Both the position numbers and the translations under genes were made by a program. Under the pieces are notes generated by a model that saw only the letters and a list, made by a program, of their open reading frames with translations, had not been told where the DNA came from and searched no databases. Shown piece by piece: positions 18,820-62,221 of a stretch of 64,000 bases of DNA. This DNA is from Octopus vulgaris. Its lineage: Eukaryota. Each line of letters starts with the position of its first letter. The stretch's first letter is position 1. Location of the stretch: positions 42,780,001-42,844,000 of the forward strand of contig OX597820.1 of assembly GCA_951406725.2 (NCBI GenBank), in the 5' to 3' direction.

Positions 18820-19565
18820 AAATTTTAGCTAATCCAGCTGCACCGAAATCGCCAGAGACATTGTAGAAATGCATCAAAATTCATTCATGCTAAAACACAT
18901 ACGACCATTATTAAATGCTTAAAAAACTTCACAATGATCTATCAATCCTACTCTATACTTTTAAAAAATTCAGTAAAATCCTGCTTTCAATTAAGTATCA
19001 GACCATCACTGAATATCACATAACGAAAATAAAATATCTAAACTTCACAAAATGTTTATTTGGGTAATATATATACATGCAAACCCTATTCGTCGAGACT
19101 ATTTGCGCATTATTAAATGTTGTAGGTATCTATATATCTATCTAAAGACTTGGTGTTTGGGCTACATTTGTGTATTTTATATATCTCCTTTATTCGGGAA
19201 CAGCTTGATATATTGGGAATATGTCAATGGTATCAGCGGTATTTCGGCTGCCGTTACGTTGTGAGTTCAAATTCCGCCGAGGTCGACTTTGCCTTTCATC
19301 CTTTCGGGGTCGATAAATTAAGTACCAGTTAAGCACTGGGATCGATATAATCGACCTAATACCTACGTCTGTCCATGTTTGTCCCCTCTATATTTAGCCC
19401 CTTGTGGGTAATAAAGAAATAGAAATAGGTATCGGAGTGTTTAAAGACTAAAATTGTAACTGAAAAAATTTAGTTAGCGTGAGGATTGTCAGGCATTTAA
19501 ACATTGGAAATATTTTCCTGTTTCATAATGATTTAAGCCAGGTATCAAAATGCCGATCTCGTGGC
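18820..19565 (-). pseudogene. Possible highly decayed mariner transposase, interrupted by a SINE
   Basis: Weak WVPHxLT-like and GDExW-like remnants on the minus strand; no TIRs found. Confidence 0.25.
19235..19427 (+). mobile_element. SINE family B, 5'-truncated, candidate 6 bp TSD
   Basis: Matches the 184 bp unit at 45223; GGTATC flanks both sides (19229-19234, 19428-19433). Confidence 0.85.
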
Positions 19566-19938
19566 TACACGCTCAGGGCTGTGTGAATAGTATAAATTAA
19601 GTAAGATGTGACAAGAACGAGACTACGAATCCAGGTCCAGCAGGAAGTAATACAATAGGCGTTCTCGATATGTCCGCACGCTGGAATTCTTCCGACAAGT
19701 AACAATGCCGTCTAGAGACCGTCGTCAGCAATACGACATTTTTCAGATACACACTATTGGAAATGTTGCAAGACACAACGAAAATTTTAAAAAATAAATA
19801 AGTAAATGAGTGGAAATTTTACCGGTGAGTGTGTTAAATTACAAGGCACTAAAAGAGAATGACTCACCCCAGACACAACAGTACATATATATATATATAT
19901 ATAAACGGCAGCCGAAATACATACATATACATATATAT

Positions 19939-20419
19939 AATTAAAATCAGGGTAAAAATTGATATTTATCAATTAGAACCAGTGGTCTAGCATATTAAAG
20001 AAAGAATCCGAAGATTAAAATATTTATATATACCAATTAAGGACTGCACACGAAAAGTGGACAGTCAACATGCTAGATATAGACGTCAAATCGCCATTCT
20101 CCACAAAAAGTTTATGTTCTCAGATCAAACTCAACAAAACCAAAGCAATAAACAAGTGAAAAATATACGAAATAAATATTTACCCATGTACTAAATTTAG
20201 TTTCAGCTGTTATTTTCCGCTGATGATGCTGCACTTTTCCTTGCGGAAAATAACAGCTGAAACTAAATTTAGTACATGGGTAAATATTTATTTCGTATAT
20301 TTTTCACTTGTTTATTGCTTTGGTTTTGTTGAGTTTGATCTGAGAACATAAACTTTTTGTGGAGAAATGATTGTCTATATCTAGCATGTTGACTTTCCAC
20401 TTTTCGTGTAGTCATAATT

Positions 20420-20425
<6 letters not shown>
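19939..20425. mobile_element. Palindromic hammerhead-bearing element, homologous to 57990-58808
   Basis: Inverted arms ~20025-20220 / 20243-20425 with 22 bp spacer; terminal ~86 bp single-copy; (TA)n on both sides. Confidence 0.85.
20220..20280 (+). ncRNA. Hammerhead ribozyme motif, 5' strand of stem I lost at the inversion junction
   Basis: CUGAUGA-U GCUG..UUUUCC UUGC GGAAAA..CAGC U-GAAA-CUAAAUUUAG UA^CAUGGG; palindromic stem III ACUAAAUUUAGU. Confidence 0.65.
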
Positions 20426-20493
<68 letters not shown>

Positions 20494-20769
20494 ATGAAGG
20501 TCAAATTAATTAATTTGGAATAATTATCAATTACCAAGTAGTCTTCGGCATGTAAAAGCCTCATTCGAGGAAAATTTAAGTAATACTAAGCAATAAAGGG
20601 TTTAGCAACGAATTGCCTTACCACATACCGAATTTAGAAATAGCAGTCAAAGAGTTATAGCTATTTCTTCTACTAAAAGGAGATCTCAGTAAAAACAGCA
20701 ATTGGAAGGCAGACACAAACAGGTAAGAGAGAATGAATTGACGGCAATCTATCATACAATTTTAAGTTA

Positions 20770-20870
20770 TCTACGGACGTACGTTTCGAAATCAAGTTTT
20801 TAGGAAAGCATAAGAATTAAATATCAAATAATTCTATCTTACCAAGAACTTCTTTTCTCTTCAGCGTAGA
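20770..20870 (-). ncRNA. Type I hammerhead ribozyme (array copy 1)
   Basis: UCUACG-CUGAAGA-[70 nt stem II closed by GAAA/UUUC]-GAAA-CGUACG UC^CGUAGA; perfect 6 bp stem I, GUC triplet. Confidence 0.88.
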
Positions 20871-21362
20871 ATACTATAATCATAAATGATTATATATTGA
20901 ATTTTGAGATACTAGAAGGCATCAACTCAACTCAGTATCAGAGCGAGCTAGAATCCGCAACTAGTATCACCAAATTCAATGTGTGAATGAAAAGATTGTG
21001 TCACCAGCCCCTTCCCACCCGCGTGTAGCCAAAACAAGATGCTGTGGTCATCTACTGAGATAAAATATGGTTATCCGTAATAATGAAGGGTGAAATTAAT
21101 TAATTTGGAATAATTATCAATTACACCAAGTAGTCTTCGGCATGTAAAAGCCTCATTCGAGGAAAATTTAAGTAATACTAAGCAATAAAGGGTTTAGCAA
21201 CGAATTGCCTTACCACATACCGAATTTAGAAATAGCAGTCAAAGAGTTATAGCTATTTCTTCTACTAAAAAGGAGATCTCAGTAAAAACAGCAATTGGAA
21301 GGCAGACACAAACAGGTAAGAGAGAATGAATTGACGGCAATCTATCATACAATTTTAAGTTA

Positions 21363-21463
21363 TCTACGGACGTACGTTTCGAAATCAAGTTTTTAGGAAA
21401 GCATAAGAATTAAATATCAAATAATTCTATCTTACCAAGAACTTCTTTTCTCTTCAGCGTAGA
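21363..21463 (-). ncRNA. Type I hammerhead ribozyme (array copy 2)
   Basis: Same motif as 20770-20870. Confidence 0.88.
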
Positions 21464-21956
21464 ATACTATAATCATAAATGATTATATATTGAATTTTGA
21501 GATACTAGAAGGCATCAACTCAGCTCAGTATCAGAGCGAGCTAGAATCCGCAACTAGTATCACCAAATTCAATGTGTGAATGAAAAGATTGTGTCACCAG
21601 CCCCTTCCCACCCGCGTGTAGCCAAAACAAGATGCTGTGGTCATCTACTGAGATAAAATATGGTTATCCGTAATAATGAAGGGTGAAATTAATTAATTTG
21701 GAATAATTATCAATTACACCAAGTAGTCATCGGCATGTAAAGGCCTCATTCGAGGAAAATTTAAGTAATACTAAGCAATAAAGGGTTTAGCAACGAATTG
21801 CCTTACCACATACCGAATTTAGAAATAGCAGTCAAAGAGTTATAGCTATTTCTTCTACTAAAAAGGGAGATCTCAGTAAAAACAGCAATTGGAAGGCAGA
21901 CACAAACAGGTAAGAGAGAATGAATTGACGGCAATCTATCATACAATTTTAAGTTA

Positions 21957-22057
21957 TCTACGGACGTACGTTTCGAAATCAAGTTTTTAGGAAAGCATAA
22001 GAATTAAATATCAAATAATTCTATCTTACCAAGAACTTCTTTTCTCTTCAGCGTAGA
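21957..22057 (-). ncRNA. Type I hammerhead ribozyme (array copy 3)
   Basis: Same motif as 20770-20870. Confidence 0.88.
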
Positions 22058-22240
22058 ATACTATAATCATAAATGATTATATATTGAATGGGGTGGGAAG
22101 GGGCTGGTGACACAATCTTTTCATTCACACATTGAATTTGGTGATACTAGTTGCGGATTCTAGCTCGCTCTGATACTGAGTTGAGTTGATGCCTTCTAGT
22201 ATCTCAAAATTCAATATATAATCATTTATGATTATAGTAT

Positions 22241-22341
22241 TCTACGCTGAAGTGAAAAGAAGTTCTTGGTAAGATAGAATTATTTGATATTTAATTCTTA
22301 TGCTTTCCTAAAAACTTGATTTCGAAACGTACGTCCGTAGA
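22241..22341 (+). ncRNA. Type I hammerhead ribozyme (array copy 4, core A9U substitution)
   Basis: Core reads CTGAAGT (T at 22253) instead of CTGAAGA. Confidence 0.7.
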
Positions 22342-22833
22342 TAACTTAAAATTGTATGATAGATTGCCGTCAATTCATTCTCTCTTACCTGTTTGTGTCT
22401 GCCTTCCAATTGCTGTTTTTACTGAGATCTCCTTTTTAGTAGAAGAAATAGCTATAACTCTTTGACTGCTATTTCTAAATTCGGTATGTGGTAAGGCAAT
22501 TCGTTGCTAAACCCTTTATTGCTTAGTATTACTTAAATTTTCCTCGAATGAGGCTTTTACATGCCGAAGACTACTTGGTGTAATTGATAATTATTCCAAA
22601 TTAATTAATTTCACCCTTCATTATTACGGATAACCATATTTTATCTCAGTAGATGACCACAGCATCTTGTTTTGGCTACACGCGGGTGGGAAGGGGCTGG
22701 TGACACAATCTTTTCATTCACACATTGAATTTGGTGATACTAGTTGCGGATTCTAGCTCGCTCTGATACTGAGTTGAGTTGATGCCTTCTAGTATCTCAA
22801 AATTCAATATATAATCATTTATGATTATAGTAT

Positions 22834-22934
22834 TCTACGCTGAAGAGAAAAGAAGTTCTTGGTAAGATAGAATTATTTGATATTTAATTCTTATGCTTTC
22901 CTAAAAACTTGATTTCGAAACGTACGTCCGTAGA
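22834..22934 (+). ncRNA. Type I hammerhead ribozyme (array copy 5)
   Basis: CTGAAGA 22840-22846, GAAA 22917-22920, predicted cleavage after C22928, stem I TCTACG/CGTAGA. Confidence 0.88.
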
Positions 22935-23118
22935 TAACTTAAAATTGTATGATAGATTGCCGTCAATTCATTCTCTCTTACCTGTTTGTGTCTGCCTTCC
23001 AATTGCTGTTTTTACTGAGATCTCCTTTTAGTAGAAGAAATAGCTATAACTCTTTGACTGCTATTTCTAAATTCGGTATGTGGTAAGGCAATTCGTTGCT
23101 AAACCCTTTATTGCTTAG

Positions 23119-24011
<893 letters not shown>

Positions 24012-26367
24012 TATACACACTCGTACGTACGTACACCTATTGCAACAATACGAATATATTTTTCGCTTCGATACAGCAGAGATATTCTACCGAATGCTCC
24101 CAGTTCCGTCCGCACTGTGTTATAAAAGATCTTGCAAAGTTAAGAATGTTGGTAACTCCTAAATTAATTAATTTCGTACATATGACATTAATTACAGATT
24201 GTGTTCTGTTTTATCTTTATATTTTCTTGTAAGGATTTAATCTGCCAAAACGGATCGGAACGAAATAAAAGTCTTGTAATTGGTCTGAAGAGAGTAATAT
24301 ACTGAAATACCCCTTTCACTCTGCATGAATAAATATATCGTATTATACTTATGCAACAATAAAGATTTCTAATAAAACAAATATAGTAATACCAGATATT
24401 CATTCGTCTGTTTATATCATATATACTCACACAGCGTGTGTGTATGTATGTGAATGTGTGCGTATATTTGTGTGGGGTGATATCATGTATATACACATAT
24501 ATATATATATATATGCATGTATGTTCAGAGATGAAGAGAGACATTTGTGAGAGAAAGAAAGAGAGAAAAGCATACAACAATATGAAATTATTTTCTGTAC
24601 TCTTCTAACACCACATACGTGCGTATGGAAAGTCTAGCAATTTCACAGATGCAATCAAAGAATTGGTCAAACGGTCATTCACTTTATCGAAGAACTAAAT
24701 AATCATAGGCACAATTATTAGAAGATCCGTTAAACACACGCACACACACATGTTATATATGTATATATATGTATTATATATGTACATACATATGTATGTG
24801 TATATATTCTATATATACAATACATATGACTATGTAAGTGTATGTGTAGACAATTGTATGTATGTATGTATGTATGTATGTATGTTTGTATGTATGTATG
24901 TATGTATGTACGTATGTATGTATGTACGTATGTATGTATGTACGTATGTATGTATGTATGTATGTTTGTATGTATGTATGTATGTACGCACACATAGTTT
25001 TATAGAACTTTATGCAACGTTCTTGCTTCGTCTTCATTTTGCTCCTGTTTGATTTTTCATTTCGCCGCTGGAAAATGTGTGCACATGATTGGTTGAATGT
25101 TCCTGATTATTATTATAGTGAAGATGACACTGATGACGAAGAGAAGGTGAGTAGAAGTGATGATGATGAGGAGGAGGGGTGGAGAAATAGGAAGGATAAG
25201 AGGAGTACGATGGTGATGTAAATGATACTGATGATGATGACGACCACCACGAAGATGATGATGATGACGATGACGATACCGACGACGATGACGACGGCGG
25301 CACCGACAACGGTTCGGTGGTGATAATGATGATTATGTTGATGATTGTTTTCTTATTATATCCGTTTCATTGTCACCATATTCAATGTAACACTACCTCT
25401 TTTGTTGTGGAACATTTCAATAGTAGAAGAAAAAAAATATTAGGTGGCAGAATTATTCATCTGCATTCCATTGTATTCGGCAAGAAATCTTCTTAATGCC
25501 TTCCTATACTTATTTGCTACAGCACATGGTGTGATGAAATGCAAGGTTTCTTCTGTCTAGTCTGTTATTTCAGGTTTCATAGATCAAATTGCAGCACAAT
25601 AACCTCCATTCATCTCCACAAAAATAACAACAAATACAGAAATGAACAATACAAGAATTTTCTTAAAAACAGAAGGAATGCAAAATAAGTCAGTATTATT
25701 GTCTTAACATTGCGTTGTTAACATACACAACGTTGTTAAAACTTTATATTCATTGTGCTGTGCTTAATATGTTATTAATATGTGCTTAATATGCGTATTT
25801 CATATTACTTCCTTGTTATTGGGGTTCTTATATATTCCTAGTTCAGCCCTTTTGCGGGAGATATAGATTGGAATTGTTCCTTTTTAACCTGGGGCTTCAT
25901 TATTAACAGTGTCCCTTTTAATTTAAAGAGAACATAGTGTAGTTTCTCAGACATTTTGCTGATATTTCAGTGAGATTTCTGTAGAAGCGCATTCTACCCT
26001 TTGGTGACTAATACTGTATTGATGATGATCATCATCATCATGATGGTAGTGGTGGTGGTGGTGGTGGTGGTGGTGGTGTGGTAGGGTGATGTTATTGGTG
26101 TTGGTGGTGGTGTTAGTGTTGGTGATGCGGTGATAGTTGAACACAGCGTTGATATGTAGTAAGAAATGCTTCAAAGATAATCAACCTAAAAAACAAATGC
26201 GTGTCACCCGCAGAGGTGCATATGATAAAGACAACGAGCTCTCATTTTATGCTACTGATCAATGTTTAATAGAGATAACTTAAGTTGCCACCTTATTAAG
26301 TATATGTTGACCATTGCTTATCATACCATATGTTTAAATACTTATGCTCTGAACTGGAATAATTTAA

Positions 26368-26588
26368 CCCATTAATGCATAGCGTCCAGAAAAATGAACG
26401 CAGGAAAAATTAGTATCACTTGTTTCATACGTGTGTATAGCTTGCTTGTTTGTACGCAGCGCCTGCTCACTCAGAGAGCACTAGTTTAGACACAGACTAC
26501 GCCAAAAGTAAGCTCAATAGGTAGTTTACTTAACAAGCAATGGTAATTTTTCCTGCGTCCATTTTTCTGGACACTATGCATTAATGGG
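26368..26588. mobile_element. piggyBac-type MITE (221 bp)
   Basis: TTAA on both sides (26364-26367, 26589-26592); CCC...GGG ends; 45 bp TIRs with 2 mismatches. Confidence 0.9.
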
Positions 26589-26906
26589 TTAACATAAAAT
26601 ATTCAGATGAAGATGGTGAGTAGAAAATGCTATGTACTAATCATAATAGACTATTTTCATCATCTCTGTATAATTAACACATAAGTGGAGAAGCTTCCAG
26701 GCTACCTTAGTGCCTTGGTGCCCAACAAAGGAATAAATTACTCTATTAATTTTGCTTGTTTTCTGATGATCTGGCCTTATGATGTGATTAAGCAACCATC
26801 TTTGTAGCGATTACTGTATAGCAGTGGTTTCCAACCTCGAGTCCGCAAAGCTAGTACTGGGGGTCTGTGAACTAAATTCAAAAATTATACATGCATACAT
26901 ATACAA

Positions 26907-38399: not shown

Positions 38400-40650
38400 G
38401 TGGCACAAATAAGAATATGACTTAAATCTAGACTTACCAACTTTTAGATATAAGATTCTTGCTCTAACATATTTTTAAAAACCATATCATTGGCAAAATT
38501 TTATATCTATATCTTGGTATTTCTAAACTTAAATAATATATATATATATATGTAATTCGATACCGCCATATGTAATTTAATTTAGATTAGACATCAGCTT
38601 CTGCAGAAACAATAGATATAATCGTTTCATGGTGAAGGCAACTCATGAAGCATTTAAATGTCATTTGCTGTTTTAGTAAACCCTGAGTTGACATAAGAAA
38701 TGTATTGCTACGTTTTGCGAAAAGGAAAGTATCTTCTTTTATTTTACGTTGCACTCCACGCTTTACATGTTTGCGAAACGTATTAGTATTTTTAATGGAA
38801 AGAAAAAGATACCTGACGTTCAGAGTCCCAGTGGTTTCGAGTAAAAGTAAAACAGCATTACCATAACTACTTTTCTTATCTTGTCAATATCATAAGCAAC
38901 GAGTAAAATAATCGAAGCAAATATGAATATCTTAGAAGAGAATTCAGTAAGAAAGCTTCTTCTGCAATAAAACGATACATACTTTCCTTCAGCAACTTGC
39001 TGAAATTTCTGAATGATAACGCTGCACTCCACTTTTATTTTACGCTGCACTCCACGCTTTACATGTTTGCGAAACGTATTAGTATTTTTAATGGAAAGAA
39101 AAAGATACCTGACGTTCAGAGTCCCAGTGGTTTCGAGTAAAAGTAAAACAGCATTACCATAACTACTTTTCTTATCTTGTCAATATCATAAGCAACGAGT
39201 AAAATAATCGAAGCAAATATGAATATCTTAGAAGAGAATTCAGTAAGAAAGCTTCTTCTGCAATAAAACGATACATACTTTCCTTCAGCAACTTGCTGAA
39301 ATTTCTGAATGATAACGCATCATTCAATCATTTATATCAGATGATAAAATCGTTACAAAAGATGAAAGTAACTCTGTTTTTCAAGGATCTTAATTTACTG
39401 CCCAAAGGTTTGAACAAATTCATCTTGCATCACCATGGATCTGAATCTCTTTAATGAATCTTCAGCATTGCTATCCAGCATGTTGAATGAAATAAATATA
39501 TTTCCTGCGCCTCTTTTTTAGAATACAATCCTAGTTTTCTTACATTGATATCGGAGGTATTCTGTCGATGTTTAAAATGTTATGCTAAAGGAATGATGGC
39601 TGTCATTAATATTTCCATGTTGACTCTAAAGAATGTTTCTTTCCTTATATACTACAGAAATTCCAGTGGGTGACCAGTATGAAAAGGAGCACGAAATAAT
39701 TTAGGTTTGAAGAAAATTATCAAGATCATCAGTGGCATATTTATGTAAACCTAAGCCTGATGAATTTACATCTTGCTTAGTAAAGAAGCTACACGACCTA
39801 AGGTGTATCTTTATTTCTTTGGATCAAGTAGAAAAGACCATCACTGAATAGGACAGAAATTACTTTCGAAAGAAGACAACGAAGCTGAAGATTATATCTT
39901 TGAAATATGGAATAAACCCCATCATAATCCTATCGTTAAATATTAAAGTTTGACCTAACGAAGCAATGTATAAATGTTTCGAAAAAGGGCGTTAGATTTG
40001 TTTACTTGCGCACTTCAGTCACTGCCCTGAATACAGAAAAGCTTACTGCAGCGATTTTTTTATGAGTTTCTTCTAGTGATCAAAATACTTCTCTACGAAC
40101 CTAATTCAGCAATTAGTAGTGGCTGTTCGCTCCAATTTAATAAGCCTGATATTAACAGTCTATAACATCACATTCATGCAGATAAATTATCAGAAAAGCT
40201 TACTGATTTAAGCGAAAAGAAAGGTAGAAGATCGACAGTTCAAGCGGGATATATGAAAGATGAAGAAAGCCGATCAAATCTTCAGCAGGACTTTGCTATT
40301 AAATCTCACCCAAGACAATCTTATGAAAGGATTGTTTTTTTTTTTCAATGAGTAATTAAGTTTTTCATTTATTTTTAAGGTACGATTGCTATAGATTTTA
40401 ATCTTATGCACTCTAAACGTTTTCCTCTGAAATAAACAAATTTAGTAATATGCACCTATTTATTTATAGAAATAAAGTTAGTAGATCATTAATCAGATGG
40501 TTATGATGTAGAAAAACCGACGTTATATTTGAAATCAGCGCTCCGACACTTAAGACATCAAAATGATTATTTTAAACTTCATGCTTTTATATAACGCATA
40601 TTTCAACACAATATCGAAGTAATTATCGAAACTTTCGAAATTATTTAGTG
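38400..40650 (+). pseudogene. Decayed DNA transposon, Chapaev3-like (CMC superfamily) transposase relic
   Basis: Fragments FRVPVVS..QHYHNYFSYLVNI (cf. FxVPMVWREPxxHxxDCYFC), YQDHQWHIYVNLSLMNL (cf. HxWxICGDLKV) and ILSLNIK (cf. LPPLHIKLGL) in the expected order. Family assigned from recalled motifs; boundaries approximate. Confidence 0.55.
38736..39318. repeat. Near-perfect tandem duplication, period 296 bp
   Basis: 38736-39022 repeated at 39032-39318 with a 9 bp junction TGCACTCCA. Confidence 0.95.
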
Positions 40651-40748: not shown

Positions 40749-40957
40749 AGACGGTGAGCGGTCAGATTTGTTATCACACTGGATAAAATACGTAGCGGCA
40801 TTTCGTCCGTCACTACGTTCTGGTTTCGAATTCCACTGAGGTCGACTTTGCCTTTTAATCTTTTAGGGTCGATAAAGTACCAGTGAAACACTGGTATCGA
40901 TGTAATCGACTAGTCCCCTCCCCACAAATCGGTTGCCTTCCGCCACCAATAGATAGG
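40749..40957 (+). mobile_element. SINE family B, followed by (TAT)n(GAA)n to ~41100
   Basis: GGCATTTCGTCCGTCACTACGTTCTGGTTTCGAATTCC...GGGTCGATAAAGTACCAG. Confidence 0.8.
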
Positions 40958-44171: not shown

Positions 44172-44497
44172 TCAGTCGAAGTCGACTTCATTTACTCGAT
44201 GGATCAGTGTCCTCCAGTCAGTTCTATCCTGGGCTGCTTCTTTCAGATTGGCTATGTCCATTCCGGTATCATTCTTGATGGTGTGAAGCCAGCGGGTTCT
44301 TGGTCGGCCTCTTCCTCTCTTGCCACTGACCATTCCGAGCATGACGTCCTCCTCCAGGGATTTTCTCCGCATAATATGACCAAAATATGCCAATCTATGC
44401 TTGGTGATCCTAGCTTCTAGCGACATTTTCGGCCTGATCTGCTTAAGAACTTCTCCATTGGTGAGCCTCGCTGTCCATGGAATCCGTAAAAGTCTGT
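44172..44497 (-). mobile_element. RTE (BovB-like) LINE 3' end, 5'-truncated
   Basis: RLLRIPWTARLTNGEVL...LAYFGHIMRRKSLEEDVMLGMVSGKRGRGRPRTRWL...QDRTDWR is a typical RTE ORF C-terminus; followed by (GATA)n at 44122-44168. Confidence 0.92.
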
Positions 44498-45175
44498 ACT
44501 GTACTGTACTGATGTAATATGTTGCCACTATTTCAGTTGATTCTGTATGAAGTTTGGTTGCTGTTGCTGTTGTCCATCTTCTTTCTGTTTACCCCCAAAT
44601 CAACACTCATATAACAGATCTATAAGCCCAATTTTTTCTAGGTTGTCAACTTTCCCTTCACCCTTTTTTTTCTCAGACATTCATGTCCCATGATCTATGT
44701 TTTTTTTTTCATAACTTTTCATATTTGAGGGTACATTTGGATGTTATGTCGTATAGTCGTCCGTCAATATATATGCCGCTTCGTAGTGCGGTTTTGTTGC
44801 GTAAAATTGTTTTAGTTTCTCAGTTGAGGCTCAAAATCGAAGCAGAGAGAATGAAAATAAAATCGAATTTATTGACATTTGGGATGCTCAATGGGTGAGG
44901 ATCTAAAAACAATAATAATAACGGCAATAACTCTAGCATCAAACCTTCACTTAAAGTATGTTACTTTTTAAATCACCTACTACTATATTCAATAAAAGAA
45001 CGTTGAACACTTTTGTCCTATATATGGTACATGTGGGGTTTTTTTGTGGAGGGGCTTGTGTGTGTGTGTGCATAAAGCAAGAAAATTTAACGGGATAGCT
45101 TTGTATTTACTCATAAATCTGCTCCACTAACGTCGACCGTCTTGTAAGAAGTTAAAGAGTAATATCAGTAACACG

Positions 45176-45958
45176 GGCGGCGAGCTGGCAGAGTCGTTAG
45201 CACGCTGGGCGAAGTCGTTAGCGGTATTTCGTCTGCCGCTATGTTCTGAGTTCGAATTCCACCGAGATCGACTTTGCCTTTCATCCTTTCGGGGTCGATT
45301 CAATAAATACCAGTTACGCACTGGGGTCTATATAATCGACTTAATCCGTTTGTCTGTCCTTGTTTGTCCTCTCTGTGTTTAGCCCCTTCTGGGTAGTAAA
45401 GAAATAGGTATTTCGTCTGCCGCTACGTTCTGAGTTCAAATTCCGCCGAGGTCGACTTTGCCTTTCCTCCTTTCAGGATCGATTAAATAAGTACCAGTTA
45501 CGCACTGGGGTCTATATAATCGATTTAATCCGTTTGTCTGTCCTTGTTCGTCCTCTCTGTGTTTAGCCCCTTGTGGGTAGTAAAGAAATAGGTATTTCGT
45601 CTGCCGCTACGTTCTGAGTTCAAATTCCGCCGAAGTCGACTTTGCCTTTCCTCCTTTCAGGATCGATTAAATAAGTACCAGTTACGCACTGGGGTCTATA
45701 TAATCTATTTAATCCGTTTGTCTGTCCTTGTTTGTCCTTTCTGTGTTTAGCCTCTTGTGTGTAGTAAAGAAATAGATATTTCGTCTGCCGCTACGTTCTG
45801 AGTTCAAATTCCGCCGAGGTCAACTTTGCCTTTCATCCTTTCCGGGTCGATTGAATAAGTAACAGTTACGCACTGGGGTCGATTTAATCGACTTAATCCG
45901 TTTGTCTGTCCTTGTTTGTCCCCTCTATGTTTAGCCTCCTGTGGGCAATAAAGAAATG
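45176..45958 (+). mobile_element. SINE family B: one head plus 4 tandem 184 bp bodies
   Basis: Head with A-box-like TGGCAGAGTCGTTA once; units start at 45223, 45407, 45591 and 45775, each with GAGTTCRAATTCC and a Nin/Deu-like GCCTTTCATCCTTTCGGGGTCGAT domain. Confidence 0.92.
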
Positions 45959-50023: not shown

Positions 50024-50033
<10 letters not shown>

Positions 50034-51036
50034 GATATGTAGAAAAATACAAACTGAGACAAGAACGCATAAGAACTTAGAAGACGATACAACAAACACA
50101 GACAGGACATTCGAAGCCCTCAGTCTTCAGTCAAGAACCGGATCATCGTAGTAATTTCGGCTGATTAATCTTGAGATTACTAGAACCGGCCAGCCCTCCA
50201 GGAGAAACTAAGCAACGAGCATTAGAAAAACTAAGCTAGGAGCGTAGATTTCCTGGAAGAAGGATCGAATGCATACGAACACAAAGACAGCAAAAAGGAC
50301 GGTGCAACACGAATATAAAAAACAAAAAACAATAATGAAATACAAAAACGTGGAATACAAAAGCAATAACGGTAAAAACAGCAAGTGTCTTACGACTAAT
50401 AACAGTGCCAACGGGTCTGGCTGGCGTATTTTGGAAAAATTGCCTTAGCGGCGAATTGCCTTAGCGGCGAATTGCCTTAGCGGCGAACGAGGAACGATGT
50501 TATCACGGCGCTGGTCAGAGGCCGAAAGGCAGATTTTGGCCAGCAGTCACGTGACAGAGAAGAGAGAAAAGAAGGAAGAGAGAGAGAAGAGGGACGAAAG
50601 CAACAAGGGGGGAGAATAGAGAGAAAGAAGGAATTAGAGAGGGTAGAAGGGATGGGTGTCAAAGATTGACCTGTGAGTGCAAAGGAAGACAAAGAAATGG
50701 AAGGGTAGGGGAAGAGTAGACCAAAGAATCAGAGGCAAGAGAAGAGAAAAAGAGGGATGAGTAGAGAGAAAAGAGAGAGAAGGGGACAGATCAACGTAGA
50801 ATGCGAAGTAAATGTAAGAGAGAGAGAGAGAAACAAACAAAGTGTAGAGTCGTACCAAATTTACAAGAATATGTGCTCACATAAGTGTTAAGGAGGTGAC
50901 GTGACGCCAGGAATATATATTATGATATGTAGAAAAATACAAACTGAGACAAGAACGCATAAGAACTTAGAAGACGATACAACAAACACAGACAGGACAT
51001 TCGAAGCCCTCAGTCTTCAGTCAAGAACCGGATCAT
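50024..51036. mobile_element. Non-coding element with ~120 bp terminal direct repeats (period 890 bp) in (TA)n
   Basis: 50024-50146 identical to 50914-51036; no TG..CA ends; GA-rich interior; 3 x 16 bp AATTGCCTTAGCGGCG at 50438-50485. Confidence 0.75.
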
Positions 51037-57150: not shown

Positions 57151-57978
57151 ACGCATTATATATACAAATGTATACAAATTATATATATATATGTATAAAT
57201 TAAATTAGAGATAAAACCACTAATAGGCAAATCAAACAGTGAAAAACATAAACCAAAACATAAAAATAAAAATATAATATACAAAATATATGAAATATAA
57301 AATTTAAAAATTTAAATTATTTAAATTTAAAATAAAAATTATTAATTTATATTTATAATTTTTTTAAAAATATATATAACTATCAAAAAGTATTAAAAAG
57401 TTTAATATACATAAATACAGATATATACACTTTGTACATATACATTATATATACATATTTATATATAGAACACACACACACACACACACATATAAATTAA
57501 CCCAATAAATATCTGATTCATAATATTTGTTCTCATGATTGGGTTGTTGTGGTGGCGATGATAATTCTGTCTATGAATGCAGACAGACGTAGAGAGAGAG
57601 AGTGTGAAAGCGCTGTCGAAGGCGGGGAGACGGGAGATATAGAACGCCGTTTGACGACGTTATAAAGAGAAAGTGAAGGGGCGTTAGACGCTGTTAGACG
57701 ACGTTATATATAGAAAGTGATGGGATGGGAGGAAAGAGAGTGAGTGACGGAGGAAGACAGATACATAAAAGAATGAAAGTAGACTTGTCAAAGTGCGTTT
57801 TTGGCCCTAGCAACGACACCTTTTAACCTAGCCCACTGGCATCCTTACCTCATTTTGCATATCCCTGTAAATTTTGGAGTCAATCCGACGGGATCTAGTA
57901 GCCTTTAACCCTTTCTCAATGCCAAAACCAGACAAACAAACAAACAAACTTTTCGCATTTCAGTTTTATAAATAGAGA
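55879..57978 (-). mobile_element. Non-autonomous Helitron-like element with nested insertions
   Basis: Minus start TCTCTATTTATAAAACTGAAATG + (GTTT)n; end hairpin ACCCGC-GCGTAGA-GCGGGT then CTAG|T; internal diverged repeat 56585-56693 / 56722-56837. Confidence 0.7.
55946..56261 (+). mobile_element. SINE family C (Meta-domain-like), 5'-truncated, (TGA)n tail
   Basis: Three GCACGWAAAAAGCACC subrepeats, GGCGTTAGGAAGGGCATCCA domain, AACGGACGTTAAAC(GAT)n end. Confidence 0.75.
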
Positions 57979-57989
57979 TATATATATTA

Positions 57990-58808
57990 ACTTGAATAAG
58001 GGTAGAAACTGATATTAATCAATTAAAACCAGTGGCCTAGCATATTAAAAAAACCCGAAGATTTAAAATATTTTTACATACAAAATTTAAAGGACTGACC
58101 ACTAAAAGTGGACGGTCAACATGCTAGATATAGACGTCGAAATCGCTATTTTCCACGAAGAATGCGTTCTCAAATAAAGCTCAGCACAAACCAAAGTGCA
58201 AAAAATAAGCAAGACAAATGAAAATATACGAAATAATAACGATTACCTATGTACCGATCAGTTTCGCTTGTTAATATCTACGCATATTGATCCGTGGAAA
58301 TCTGCAAGCTCATCAGCATAGTCTGTCGTATACAAATATAATTTCCAGGACTAGATACAAAAATGCTTGACCGGAGTCCCGCATGCATAGAGCCCAACAA
58401 ATTATATTTATGTGTATCCTTCAAATGCCTTCACGTTGGCGCGCTGACATCGGAAATCGACCCTGCAGTTAATAAACTGCAGCAGTCAATTTACCGGTTA
58501 GAGAACATTTTTTTAGTATTTAAAATTGAATAAGGGTAGAAATTGATATTAATCAATTTGCAGATTTCCACGTATCCATATGCGTGGATATTAACAAGCG
58601 AAACTGATCGGTACATAGGAAATCGTTATTATTTCGTTTATTTTCATTTGTCTTGCTTATTTTTTACACTTTGGTTTGTGCTGAGTTTTTATTTGAGAAA
58701 ACATTCTTCCTGGAAAATAGCGATTTTGACGTCTATATCTAGCATATTGACCGTCCACTTTTAGTGGTCAGTCCTTTAAATTTTGTATGTAAAAATATTT
58801 TAAATCTT
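57990..58808. mobile_element. Hammerhead-bearing element: 534 bp unit, start of next unit, then inverted arm
   Basis: 57992-58023 repeated at 58526-58557; ~58558-58808 is the revcomp of 58058-58307; homologous to 19939-20425; TA-flanked. Confidence 0.88.
58247..58321 (-). ncRNA. Type I hammerhead ribozyme, canonical core
   Basis: CUAUG-CUGAUGA-GCUUG...CAAGC-GAAA-CUGAUCGG UA^CAUAG; stem I 5/5, G10.1-C11.1 pair, self-complementary stem III ACUGAUCGGU. Confidence 0.88.
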
Positions 58809-58825
58809 TTATATATATATATATA

Positions 58826-60680
58826 GTTAATCCGAACATGGACAAAGAGAAAACACAACACCGCGAGGGCGTGGAACAAGTATAGTGTTATTGGACGCTC
58901 AGGAAAGGAAAGAAAGAAGGAGGATTTAACATTTCGAGCGGAGCTCTTCGTTAAAATTATAGGAAAAAGGAAAAATTCAAGGAAGGGAAGTCGGAGAAAG
59001 AAAATCGCCATCGATACACACGCGGTCACATATTGAAATGACCGGAAGGGAATGGGTGAAGAAAAAGACAGGAGAGTGCAAGAGGAGATATGTGTGTATA
59101 TGTGGGTATGTGCGTGCGCATAGGTCTGTGTGTGTGTATAGTGATAGCATATGCGCCCGCGCGTGTGTGTGTGTGTGTGTGTGGTTGCAGCTGTTTATCT
59201 ATGTATGTGGTTGGCCTTAGTATCGTTTAAGGTCATAGGAAGAATATATAGTAAGAATTATTCTAGGACTGGCTGCCTGTTGTGTGTTTACCTAGATATG
59301 TGCGTAGGAGAATGGTCAGTAGAAGGTACTGGTAATTTTGAAGTATGTCTGTGTGCGTGTATTTATATGTAGTGTGTGTGTGTGTTTTGTTTGCAGTGTG
59401 TGTATGTGTGTGTGTATGTACGTGTGTGTTCGTTTGTGTATGTGTGTATGCGTGGGGATGTGTGCGTGTGTGGAGTAATTGTACTATACACTGTGTATGT
59501 GTGAGTGTTTGCTTGTATGTCCGTGTGTGTGTGTACACGTATGTATAATAGTGTGTGTATGTATGTGTCAGTGTGTACTGTTTGTGTATGGGAGGTATGT
59601 GTGGGTTCATTTGCGTGAGCGTGTGCGTGTGTGTGTATGTGTATGCGTGTGAGTGTATGTGAGTGTGTACATGTGTGTGTATGTGGAATGTACTTTGTGT
59701 GTGTGCATGTGCATGAGTGTGTGAACGAGGAGTTGTGTAGGGGGAATAGTTGCGTTTTTGCTCGTGTAGGCATGTGCGTGTGTGTGTGCGTGTACATGCG
59801 TATGCGCGTGTAGTTGTGTGCGTGTATGTATGCGTATAGTTGTGTGTGCGTGTGTGCGTATGTGGGTATATATACGTATATGCGTGGGGTTATGACTGTT
59901 AGGTACGTGTGCATTCGCATGCGTGTGTGCGTGCATATGTGTGCGCATGTGTGTGTGCGTGTGTGTATGTGTCTCTATGTGTATGCGTATGTATATGTGT
60001 GTGTGCGTGTATGCATGTATATGTATGTATGTGTGTGTGAATTGGTGTATGCGTGTATGCGTGGGTTGTGTGTGGGGTTTGTGTGGAGGGTGTAGGCGTA
60101 TATGTGCGTACTTGTGTGTATGTGCATGTGTGCGTGTGCATATGTGCGTGTGCTTACGTGCGTGTGTGCGTGTGTGTTTATGCCTATGTGTGTGTAATTG
60201 TGTGCGTGTCTGTATGTGTAATGTGGGTTGGAGGTATATGTGCATCCCTGTGCGTGTGTATGTGTGTGTGTGTATGCGTGTGTGTATGTGTGTGGAAGTA
60301 TGTGTGGATATGTGCATCTATGTATGTTGTATGTGTGTGGTGTGTGTGGGAGGTATGTGTGCGTTCGTGGATATATACGTATGTGTGTGCATGTGTGCGT
60401 CTATATAGAAATAAAAACAATAAATTATAAAACAATAAAATATAAAAATTAAGGTTGAAAGGTGATAAGGAAGTTAATGCAATATAAATGGCGCAATTAC
60501 AAGCAAAAATGAAAAATGAAACACGGTTGCTTTGTTGCAGGAGATGTAGAGGCAGTCAATGGGAGAATGGGGTGGTGTTTAGTCCGTAGGGGATAGATTA
60601 AAGATATACCTCTGTTCCAGGCGGAGTCGTGAGTGTGTGGGTCCGTGCTATAAAGCAAGGCCAAAGACGGAGATGTTGCC
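58826..60680 (-). mobile_element. 5'-truncated Penelope-like element: GIY-YIG tail, long AC-rich 3' region, terminal hammerhead-like motif
   Basis: 60680-60556 translates NISVFGLAL*HGPTHSRLRLEQRYIFNL / PYGLNTTPFSH* (E..I....PxGLN motif); degenerate (AC) tract ~59090-60405; ACGAAGAGC-TCC-GCTCGAAATGTT at 58951-58928. Joining these into one element is inferred. Confidence 0.7.
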
Positions 60681-60714
60681 TAATTAAGCAGATACATCTT
60701 TAGCAGTGGAATAG

Positions 60715-61182
60715 ATGAGGTTATTTAAGATTAGGTCATTTCGCTTATTTCTTAAGATCTGTCTAAGAGCAATGTTATATACCATGATTGTTATTTTTAT
60801 GTTGTTTGAGAGCTTTGGTAGCATTTCTCTATTGTGCATGTTAGTAAATTCAGTTTGGCTGAGTTTTCTCTTATCTTTTTTGGCTTGTGTGGCCTCTTTA
60901 TTATTCAGCTCAAATTCTGCATCCTATCTATTCTGGTGTTCTTGAGATAGGTCTACTTTCTCCTCTTTTTCCGCATATCTGTTCTAAGTTATCCTTTATT
61001 CAGTTTACGCGTTGGAATATACTCCTCGTACACTGGGTCCTGTGCATCCGTTACCTATTTCATCTGCAATGATGCTGTTTTCATTTGGTCTATCATGGGA
61101 TATTCGGATCCTAATTTGGCTAATTTCAGCGTCTGTTAACCTTTTATTCTTAATGATGTCTCTTCGTACATTAATATATTTG

Positions 61183-61185
<3 letters not shown>
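60715..61185 (-). mobile_element. Probable N-terminal ORF fragment of an R4/Dong-like LINE
   Basis: NVRRDIIKNKRLTDAEISQIR resembles recalled R4/Dong N-terminal sequence; adjacent to clear 3' fragments. Confidence 0.45.
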
Positions 61186-61231
<46 letters not shown>

Positions 61232-61289
61232 TACTTCGTTGCCTATTAAATTTCTCCATTATCATCATCATCATTATTATTATTATAAT

Positions 61290-62062
61290 TCAGTAGTCTT
61301 AATTTATCACGTGCTTTCACCGCACTACCGATCGCAACTCTGTGTGTCTTGGGTATGTGCTGTCATTTTTGTGATGCTCTTACTATTTATGTGCAGTGCC
61401 TAGTAGTACTATTTTCTGTATGATACATATATTTTTGTTAGTCCTGGTGTTTTTGTTATGTATTTGTCTGAATATTTTTTATCATACCTAATGCGCCCAC
61501 TATGATAGGAATTGTTCCTGTTTTTAGACAACACATTCGAGTTACCTCTATTTCCAGGTCTTTGTATTTTGAAAGTTTATCCAATTCTTTTACAGAGACG
61601 TTGTCATCTGTTGGTATTGATATATCAATTAGAAAGCATTTTTTTCTTCATGATCTCTGACAACTGTATCGGGCCTTAATTTTTCTGTCTATTTGTACTG
61701 GCATATCCTATAGTATTGTTGCGTTCTCATTTTCTGTGACCTTTTCTGGCGTGTGCTTATACCATCCTTTTTTGTTGTTATTCCATAGTGTTGGCATAGT
61801 CTCCAGCGTATGTAGTTATCAACTCTGTCGTGACTGTGAATATATTCTTTCTTAACTAGGACTGGGCAACCTGAGAAATATGATCGATTGTTTCTTGTCC
61901 ATCTCCACATATTCTGTAGTTACTTGTATGTTTGTTTTAATTTTTTGTTATTTCTGGTGGGGAGGCTTTGGTTTTGTTTTGCTGTTAAAAATCCTTCAGC
62001 CTCTGCTTTGAGTCCTGAGCTTCTCAGCCATTCTTGTGATTTTGCTTTGTCTATTCCTTTTG
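61290..62062 (-). mobile_element. R4/Dong-like non-LTR retrotransposon 3' part (CCHC + RLE endonuclease)
   Basis: SGCPVLVKKEYIHSHDRV..WRLCQHYGI; RPDTVVRDHEEK; KCFLIDISIPTDDNVSVKELDKLSKYKDLEIEVTRM..TIPIIVGALGMIK; bounded by (TAA)n. Confidence 0.88.
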
Positions 62063-62094
62063 CGTTTTATTATCATTATTATTATTATTATTAT

Positions 62095-62221
62095 TCAGTA
62101 GTTTTATTTTTATAGCGTGCTTTCACTTCACTACCGAGCGCAGCTCTGTGTGCCTTGGGCATGTGCTGTGAGTTGTTGTGATGCTCTGATGGTTATTGTA
62201 TGGAAAGTGTTCTGCGTAGGA

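Follow-up and report, generated by a model that had tools for sequence, protein, structure and literature searches.

A two-armed insertion of a 534-nt hammerhead repeat in octopus DNA, probably an aged retrozyme copy placed by a Penelope-type enzyme

The window, the 64-kb stretch of DNA that was analysed, is AT-rich animal DNA and rich in microsatellites. Near its right end, two arms of one non-coding hammerhead repeat lie in opposite orientation between two TA runs. The window itself, contigs of public runs, folding and literature form the evidence base. The features of the insertion are as follows.

57978-57987, no strand: (TA)n target, left
57990-58558, minus strand: main arm, 569 nt, made up of one 534-nt unit and the adjoining 35 nt of the unit before it
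57990-58523, minus strand: 534-nt non-coding unit, 36% GC, predicted to be strongly self-paired
57990-58057, minus strand: 68-nt extension confined to the main arm, counterpart of the Penelope 'tail' (90-92 nt in the two related insertions)
57990-58127, minus strand: 3' domain, predicted fold common with a 593-nt family, with both putative start points inside
58247-58321, minus strand: type I hammerhead motif, CUGAUGA at 58316-58310 and GAAA at 58265-58262
58253-58262, minus strand: self-complementary helix III, 8 Watson-Crick and 2 G-U pairs as homodimer, predicted to make cleavage dimer-dependent
58524-58558, minus strand: overrun into the previous unit ('terminal redundancy'), 35 nt, 33/35 identical to 57990-58024
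58558-58808, plus strand: inverted 5'-truncated arm, 251 nt, 94.8% identical to 58307-58058
58810-58825, no strand: (TA)n target, right

The sequence-only reading had noted that the first ~32 bp recur 534 bp later. The recurrence is confirmed at 30 of 32 positions and extends to 35 nt with 33 identical, the two redundant stretches being spaced by 534 nt. The inverted arm agrees with 58307-58058 at 238 of 251 positions. It lacks CUGAUGA, as had also been noted, because it starts 2 nt inside helix II. The arms are joined 5' end to 5' end with a 1-nt overlap (T at 58558), and the 3' ends of both point outward into TA runs, within which a target-site duplication is unreadable. The main arm has its 3' end at 57990, which would be the start point P1 of reverse transcription, and the inverted arm ends 68 nt before it. 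The 35-nt redundancy was considered as a Penelope tail and rejected, the equivalent of the tail being the part absent from the inverted arm. The redundancy is the truncation point, where the first cDNA ended, and no designed terminal repeat.

With its arms 5% apart, the insertion is an aged one. Among the 13 differences between the arms, read by hand, the inverted arm carries the public-run majority at 7, and at least two others are private to it. This fits arms which were identical when inserted and then drifted by ~2.6% each. The 593-nt family nearby, at 98-99.8%, is much younger. An RNA-editing footprint was rejected for the 57990-58808 copy, A-to-G and U-to-C changes against the run majority being 7 and 4 by hand count (p 0.55).

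Other repeats adjoin the insertion. On the right, 58828-59030 is a decayed copy of a third repeat of very high depth, the end of which adjoins the same TA run; its public-run majority has a minus-strand hammerhead core (CUGACGA ... GAAA) that is lost in the window copy. The high-depth repeat on the left (57700-57980) ends in (CAAA)n and then a short AT-rich end, and it may resemble Helitron-derived repeats. Farther away, at 50031-51036, TA runs flank a unit of 890 bp that begins and ends with identical direct repeats of 116 bp; within the repeat the minus strand reads CUGAAGA ... GAAU, which is hammerhead-like. The unit looks like another pLTR-type element. Two adjacent 296-bp copies at 38736-39318 are 99.7% identical, and the hammerhead pattern is absent from them. 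Four tandem 184-bp units with single relatives dispersed across the window (45223-45957, 19235-19426, 40752-40911) and a MITE-like 230-bp element with long imperfect terminal inverted repeats (26364-26592) were also found.

The hammerhead had been described as complete and on the minus strand with a GUA site, and this holds. It has the full core and helices I to III, with a predicted cut at GUA between 58252 and 58251. Helix I is formed by CUAUG/CAUAG and helix II by GCUUG/CAAGC together with a long extension, while helix III comprises two Watson-Crick pairs and a G-U pair capped by a loop of 4 nt; the stretch between A15.1 and U16.1, 10 nt in all, is self-complementary. The strict type I pattern occurs at five places in the window, once in this insertion and four times in the 593-nt family; block-shuffled windows gave a mean of 0.015 matches and any match in 1% of 200. 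Rfam at the gathering threshold returned no hammerhead match in the window, for which the long helix II may be the reason.

The palindromic helix III is kept in four differing sequences: the 57990-58808 copy, a sister copy at 19.9 kb which is 77% identical (12/12), the 593-nt family (8/8) and a variant in public run X2 (10/10). The X2 variant consists of three changes, each at about half of the depth, which by matching depth occur together in one X13 contig; one of them turns a G-C into an A-U pair formable only between two ribozymes. Folded alone, the hammerhead prefers an inactive pairing of CUGAU with AUCGG. An unconstrained co-fold of two copies gave a double hammerhead with both cores open (-49.4 vs 2 x -22.1 kcal/mol), predicted to be 5 kcal/mol better than two core-locked monomers. 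The folding thus predicts an inactive monomer and an active dimer. According to the available text of PMC4209133, type I hammerheads with a short helix III and a palindromic loop are dimer-dependent. The term 'canonical' used in the sequence-only reading is therefore apt for a ribozyme of this dimer type but not for an efficient monomer. In vitro cleavage was absent in 8 of 9 frog retrozyme dimers in the part of 10.64898/2026.07.22.740005 available. The 57990-58808 copy contains one complete ribozyme and lacks the two consecutive complete ribozymes by which Li et al. recognise an 'active' copy, as distinct from family membership; it is a dead-end copy of its family.

Lack of coding potential, also claimed earlier, was borne out. 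Once the 534-nt unit is circularised, its longest ATG frame codes for 36 aa on the strand of the ribozyme and for 56 aa on the opposite one. None of the 140 non-repetitive frames of at least 60 aa in the 64-kb window matched an RT or GIY-YIG family, so that the RT and GIY-YIG ORF of an autonomous EN+ Penelope-like element is absent from unit and window, and no autonomous Penelope partner lies within the 64 kb. Minus-strand frames at 44175-44588 and 60440-62190 resemble decayed non-LTR retrotransposon pieces; they gave no Pfam match.

Part of the 534-nt unit is present in 20 listed public runs from 10 studies and four organism codes. At 82% likeness, 2977 contigs of X2, 1138 of X5, 2088 of X7 and 83 of X13 mapped to it and spanned all 30 bins of the unit. 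None of the listed runs is labelled as RNA. Family contigs also occur in X11 and X13, two runs guessed to be RNA, in which contigs are uninformative on level, strand and circles. A 28-nt motif of the family had no match among metagenome contigs. In X2, eight head-to-tail wrap joints were found among the best 12 of the 26 joints with letters between their sides, with periods of 533, 533, 533, 536, 536, 538, 544 and 545; in two of these joints the letters in between can clearly be recognised as variants of what comes next in the window itself. At least one more wrap joint was found in X7 and at least one in X6. Other copies therefore continue head-to-tail as DNA, and at these periods of 533-545 the best-supported copies wrap in register.

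The sequence-only reading had named continuation into an RT/GIY-YIG ORF as the observation that would speak against it. No such continuation was seen in the window and the run contigs, where the repeat continues into itself. In the six runs listed as 'DNA?' or unlabelled, 0-2 of every 100 contigs aligned to the unit continue into unlike sequence; this rarity argues against a common coding continuation and is still compatible with a rare autonomous partner. Contigs leaving the 3' end of the unit into TA runs number at least 54 in X2, at least 35 in X7 and at least 3 in X13, counted among the 24 best supported of 544 loose ends, and the opposite-strand joints, of which the best 15 of 31 were compared, lie at varied inner positions. 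Depth drops about tenfold from the 3' end to the 5' half of the unit, as 5' truncation would give, contig depth not being equal to copy number.

The RNA of the 534-nt unit is predicted to be 62% paired in a branched fold. Its circular fold has -144.4 kcal/mol against -114.3 +/- 5.8 for 60 shuffles (z -5.2), and linear folds range from -143 to -150 kcal/mol across 18 rotations, so the point of opening matters little. The antisense strand also beats its own shuffles (-107.4 vs -89.6 +/- 7.0). On comparison of linear rotations and antisense, folding gives the circle no advantage over a tandem transcript. For the 593-nt unit the circular fold has a z of -10.3.

At its 3' end the 57990-58808 main arm is predicted to form a domain with a 9-bp closing helix (58127-58119 with 58045-58037), inner hairpins and a terminal hairpin, and ACCC lies 13 nt upstream of the end. 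The 3' domains of the three two-armed insertions in the window, folded singly, showed the same outline, with hairpins enclosed by a long closing helix and followed by a terminal hairpin and ACCC. All nine pairs of the closing helix, which was selected by eye from the single folds, are kept between the 534- and 593-nt families, with three two-sided and two one-sided changes. RNAalifold on an automatic alignment of the three domains, which put the 593-nt family out of register, found both sides changed in 2 of 22 pairs, with 9 pairs disrupted in one of the sequences. The two units are homologous between cut site and 3' end (score 145.5 vs 95.4 +/- 9.5, reached by 0 of 1000 shuffles). Upstream of the cut site homology is weak, with 36 of 1000 shuffles reaching the score. 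The local alignment of whole units scored 106 against a shuffle maximum of 112 in 300, and the 100-nt end taken by itself fell short of significance (70 of 1000 shuffles).

Two further two-armed insertions are present in the window, the sister copy at 19917-20463 and the 593-nt family at 20491-23121, and the comparison of end points rests on these three. All three main arms end at one homologous site, 8-13 nt past the shared ACCC. Two of the three inverted arms end at a second site, the same aligned GUAU, which is 88-92 nt upstream of the first; the inverted arm of 57990-58808 runs 20 nt beyond the matching shared site at 58078. The inner arm ends vary among the insertions. All six outer ends adjoin TA runs and all six arms cross the cleavage site. 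The template was therefore uncut or re-ligated, and since the main arm crosses the unit junction, the unit followed itself on the template.

In the sister copy, which is ~77% identical, both arms are truncated in or at the hammerhead and the inverted arm starts exactly at CUGAUGA. The core/helix II region is the stop of 3 of the 4 arms in the two 534-type insertions and of neither of the 2 arms in the 593-nt family; polymerases may stall there. A halt of the 57990-58808 main arm on meeting the second start point (it stops 53 nt short of the shared site) was considered and found unsupported, the other two insertions stopping elsewhere. The young 593-nt hammerhead family at 20491-23121, a distant homologue of the 534-nt unit, has ~2.7 units and an inverted arm of ~1.7 units with 4 ribozymes, and lies within the terminal TA run of the sister copy.

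The best explanation, to which a probability of about 0.8 is given, is that 57990-58808 is an aged insertion of a non-LTR retrozyme which likely borrowed a Penelope-type RT/EN and was primed from both DNA ends. The retrozyme features present are a type I hammerhead, a small non-coding unit with GC below 50% and no LTR-retrotransposon ORF, head-to-tail repetition (1.07 units here) and an RNA predicted to be highly self-paired. The footprint of the insertion points to a Penelope enzyme as the mover: a partial tandem with an adjacent inverted 5'-truncated copy is found here and in the same shape at 19.9 kb and at 20.5-23.1 kb, and the target is AT-rich (TA)n. In the available text of PMC8557442, Penelope-like elements are marked by partial tandems, by a neighbouring inverted copy with a truncated 5' end, by a tail of 30-40 bp on one side and by microsatellite targets; insertion layout and (TA)n bias are also described in PMC3846280. 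The extension of 68-92 nt exceeds the published 30-40 nt, which counts against this explanation. As far as PMC11167929 is available, a Penelope protein was purified and shown in vitro to cleave both strands of DNA at AT-rich sites and to extend them; it begins reverse transcription at two internal RNA sites of which the interval is the tail, and uses uncut RNA, so that ribozyme cleavage is unneeded. Kinship of retrozymes with Penelope is proposed in accessible parts of PMC7229834, where Penelope-like elements are called 'a strong candidate' for the mover, and those of 10.64898/2026.07.22.740005 report co-occurrence and sequence kinship of the two with little on the life cycle.

The sequence-only reading had proposed slightly more than one turn around a 'circular or tandem' template and then a strand switch. 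As an either/or, its first half stands on the 35-nt overrun, the six arms crossing the cleavage site and the contigs wrapping in register. The template RNA had the unit following itself, and a tandem transcript and a circle are equally compatible with the data. The strand switch is the weaker half. A single polymerase going slightly more than once round a circular RNA and then switching onto its own cDNA would account for the 1.07 units and for an inverted arm contained within the sequence of the main arm; self-priming is proposed for Penelope inverted junctions in PMC3846280, and according to PMC7229834, as available, coral, mussel and axolotl do contain retrozyme circles. It offers no reason, however, for the outer site shared by two of three inverted arms. 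The overrun is accounted for equally well by a tandem transcript, and the junction links unit positions ~285 nt apart with 1 nt of overlap, which is not a fold-back. Two-ended priming is favoured over a turn-back of the strand because the outer ends share a site (two exactly, one 20 nt off) while the inner ends vary, and the circle with switch appears decidedly unlikely.

A leftover pLTR of an autonomous Penelope with a 5'-truncated and inverted copy, the 534-nt period coming from internal deletion or local duplication, is likewise unlikely. In the available descriptions a pLTR likewise has a hammerhead, an inverted arm, a one-sided extension and (TA)n, and in public runs the depth of the unit's 3' 190 nt far exceeds that of its 5' half, contig depth being a rough guide; this end may be common to further families, some of them possibly coding. 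Against this origin, the sequence upstream of the ribozyme enters the unit's own 3' end, the same wrap recurs in several independent contigs, continuation into unlike sequence is as rare as given above, and an RT or endonuclease frame is absent from unit and window. Highly improbable is a rearrangement at the DNA level, in which a satellite-like repeat was duplicated and inverted locally in repair with the ribozyme as passenger. It would suit the aged arms, and local amplification of such repeats by unequal crossover is discussed in the accessible text of 10.64898/2026.07.22.740005, but three separate insertions of the window agree in having two arms, outer ends that both lie at (TA)n, and end points that are homologous, and the opposite-strand joints in runs lie at varied inner positions.

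Under two-ended priming by a borrowed Penelope enzyme, the course of events could be as follows. A tandem copy would be transcribed and neighbouring hammerheads would pair through the palindromic helix III, cutting out monomers, whereas a unit on its own is predicted to block its core by pairing CUGAU with AUCGG and so to escape cleavage. The structured 3' domain would be bound by a Penelope protein, which would nick both strands of (TA)n. Extension of one strand would start at P1 and proceed for 569 nt, over the cleavage site and the unit junction; extension of the other would start at about a second point, P2, and halt in helix II after 251 nt. Repair would join the two 5' ends, and the arms would then drift by ~2.6% each. 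A more specific version is tentative, with the odds against it: the template may be one covalently closed 534-nt RNA, self-locked as a monomer, of which the conserved ~140-nt 3' fold loads two Penelope enzymes at two fixed points, one per broken DNA end. The identity of the mover of animal retrozymes and the role of circles as intermediate are the standing question of the field, and this version, if true, would name the mover and the RNA element it reads. Such insertions bear the footprint of the enzyme and point to a candidate RNA signal, a shared 3' fold with two end points.

Small structured hammerhead units are also known in viroid-like and satellite circular RNAs, which have ribozymes in both polarities, a rod-like fold and RNA-only replication. 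Unlike these, the 534-nt unit is an integrated high-copy repeat with a ribozyme in one polarity and a branched predicted fold.

Likeness to EN+ Penelope-like elements is much closer. These elements and their pLTR insertions, described as far as available in PMC8557442, PMC3846280 and, for Anolis Poseidon, PMC11167929, share the partial tandem, the inverted 5'-truncated copy, the one-end extension, AT or (TA)n targets, a hammerhead upstream of the 3' end and two start sites of reverse transcription, such as may exist in the 534-nt unit. The unit differs from the available descriptions by having no ORF and an extension of 68-92 instead of 30-40 nt, and its ribozyme combines a complete helix III palindrome with a long helix II where the Penelope-like pLTR ribozyme is of minimal form. 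Rather than being an autonomous Penelope element, the unit behaves like a passenger that depends on one. Type I hammerheads of the dimeric kind in newt and axolotl satellites and Penelope pLTRs (PMC4209133 and PMC7229834, in part) have the same short palindromic-loop helix III and activity predicted in pairs only; the palindrome here is longer (10-12 nt), and a pairing is predicted which locks the monomer core.

No report of cephalopod retrozymes or of two-armed retrozyme insertions was found in the main texts of the openly accessible literature, nor, among the papers listed, a Penelope-specific one on twin priming; octopus Penelope entries of Repbase may already contain the family. Compared with the metazoan non-LTR retrozymes of PMC7229834 and 10.64898/2026.07.22.740005, two-armed insertions with fixed 3' ends are not described in the available text of either, and the word 'inverted' is absent from PMC7229834. 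The size of 534 nt is above the 170-400 nt given in the former and within the 51-972 bp of the latter, and cleavage and circles have been shown for those elements while cleavage is here predicted from sequence. Both sources, as far as available, describe elements alike in having a non-coding low-GC unit, one type I hammerhead, head-to-tail copies, a predicted RNA which is strongly self-paired and a proposed Penelope-like dependence. The 534-nt repeat is most likely an ordinary member of these known animal 'retrozymes'.
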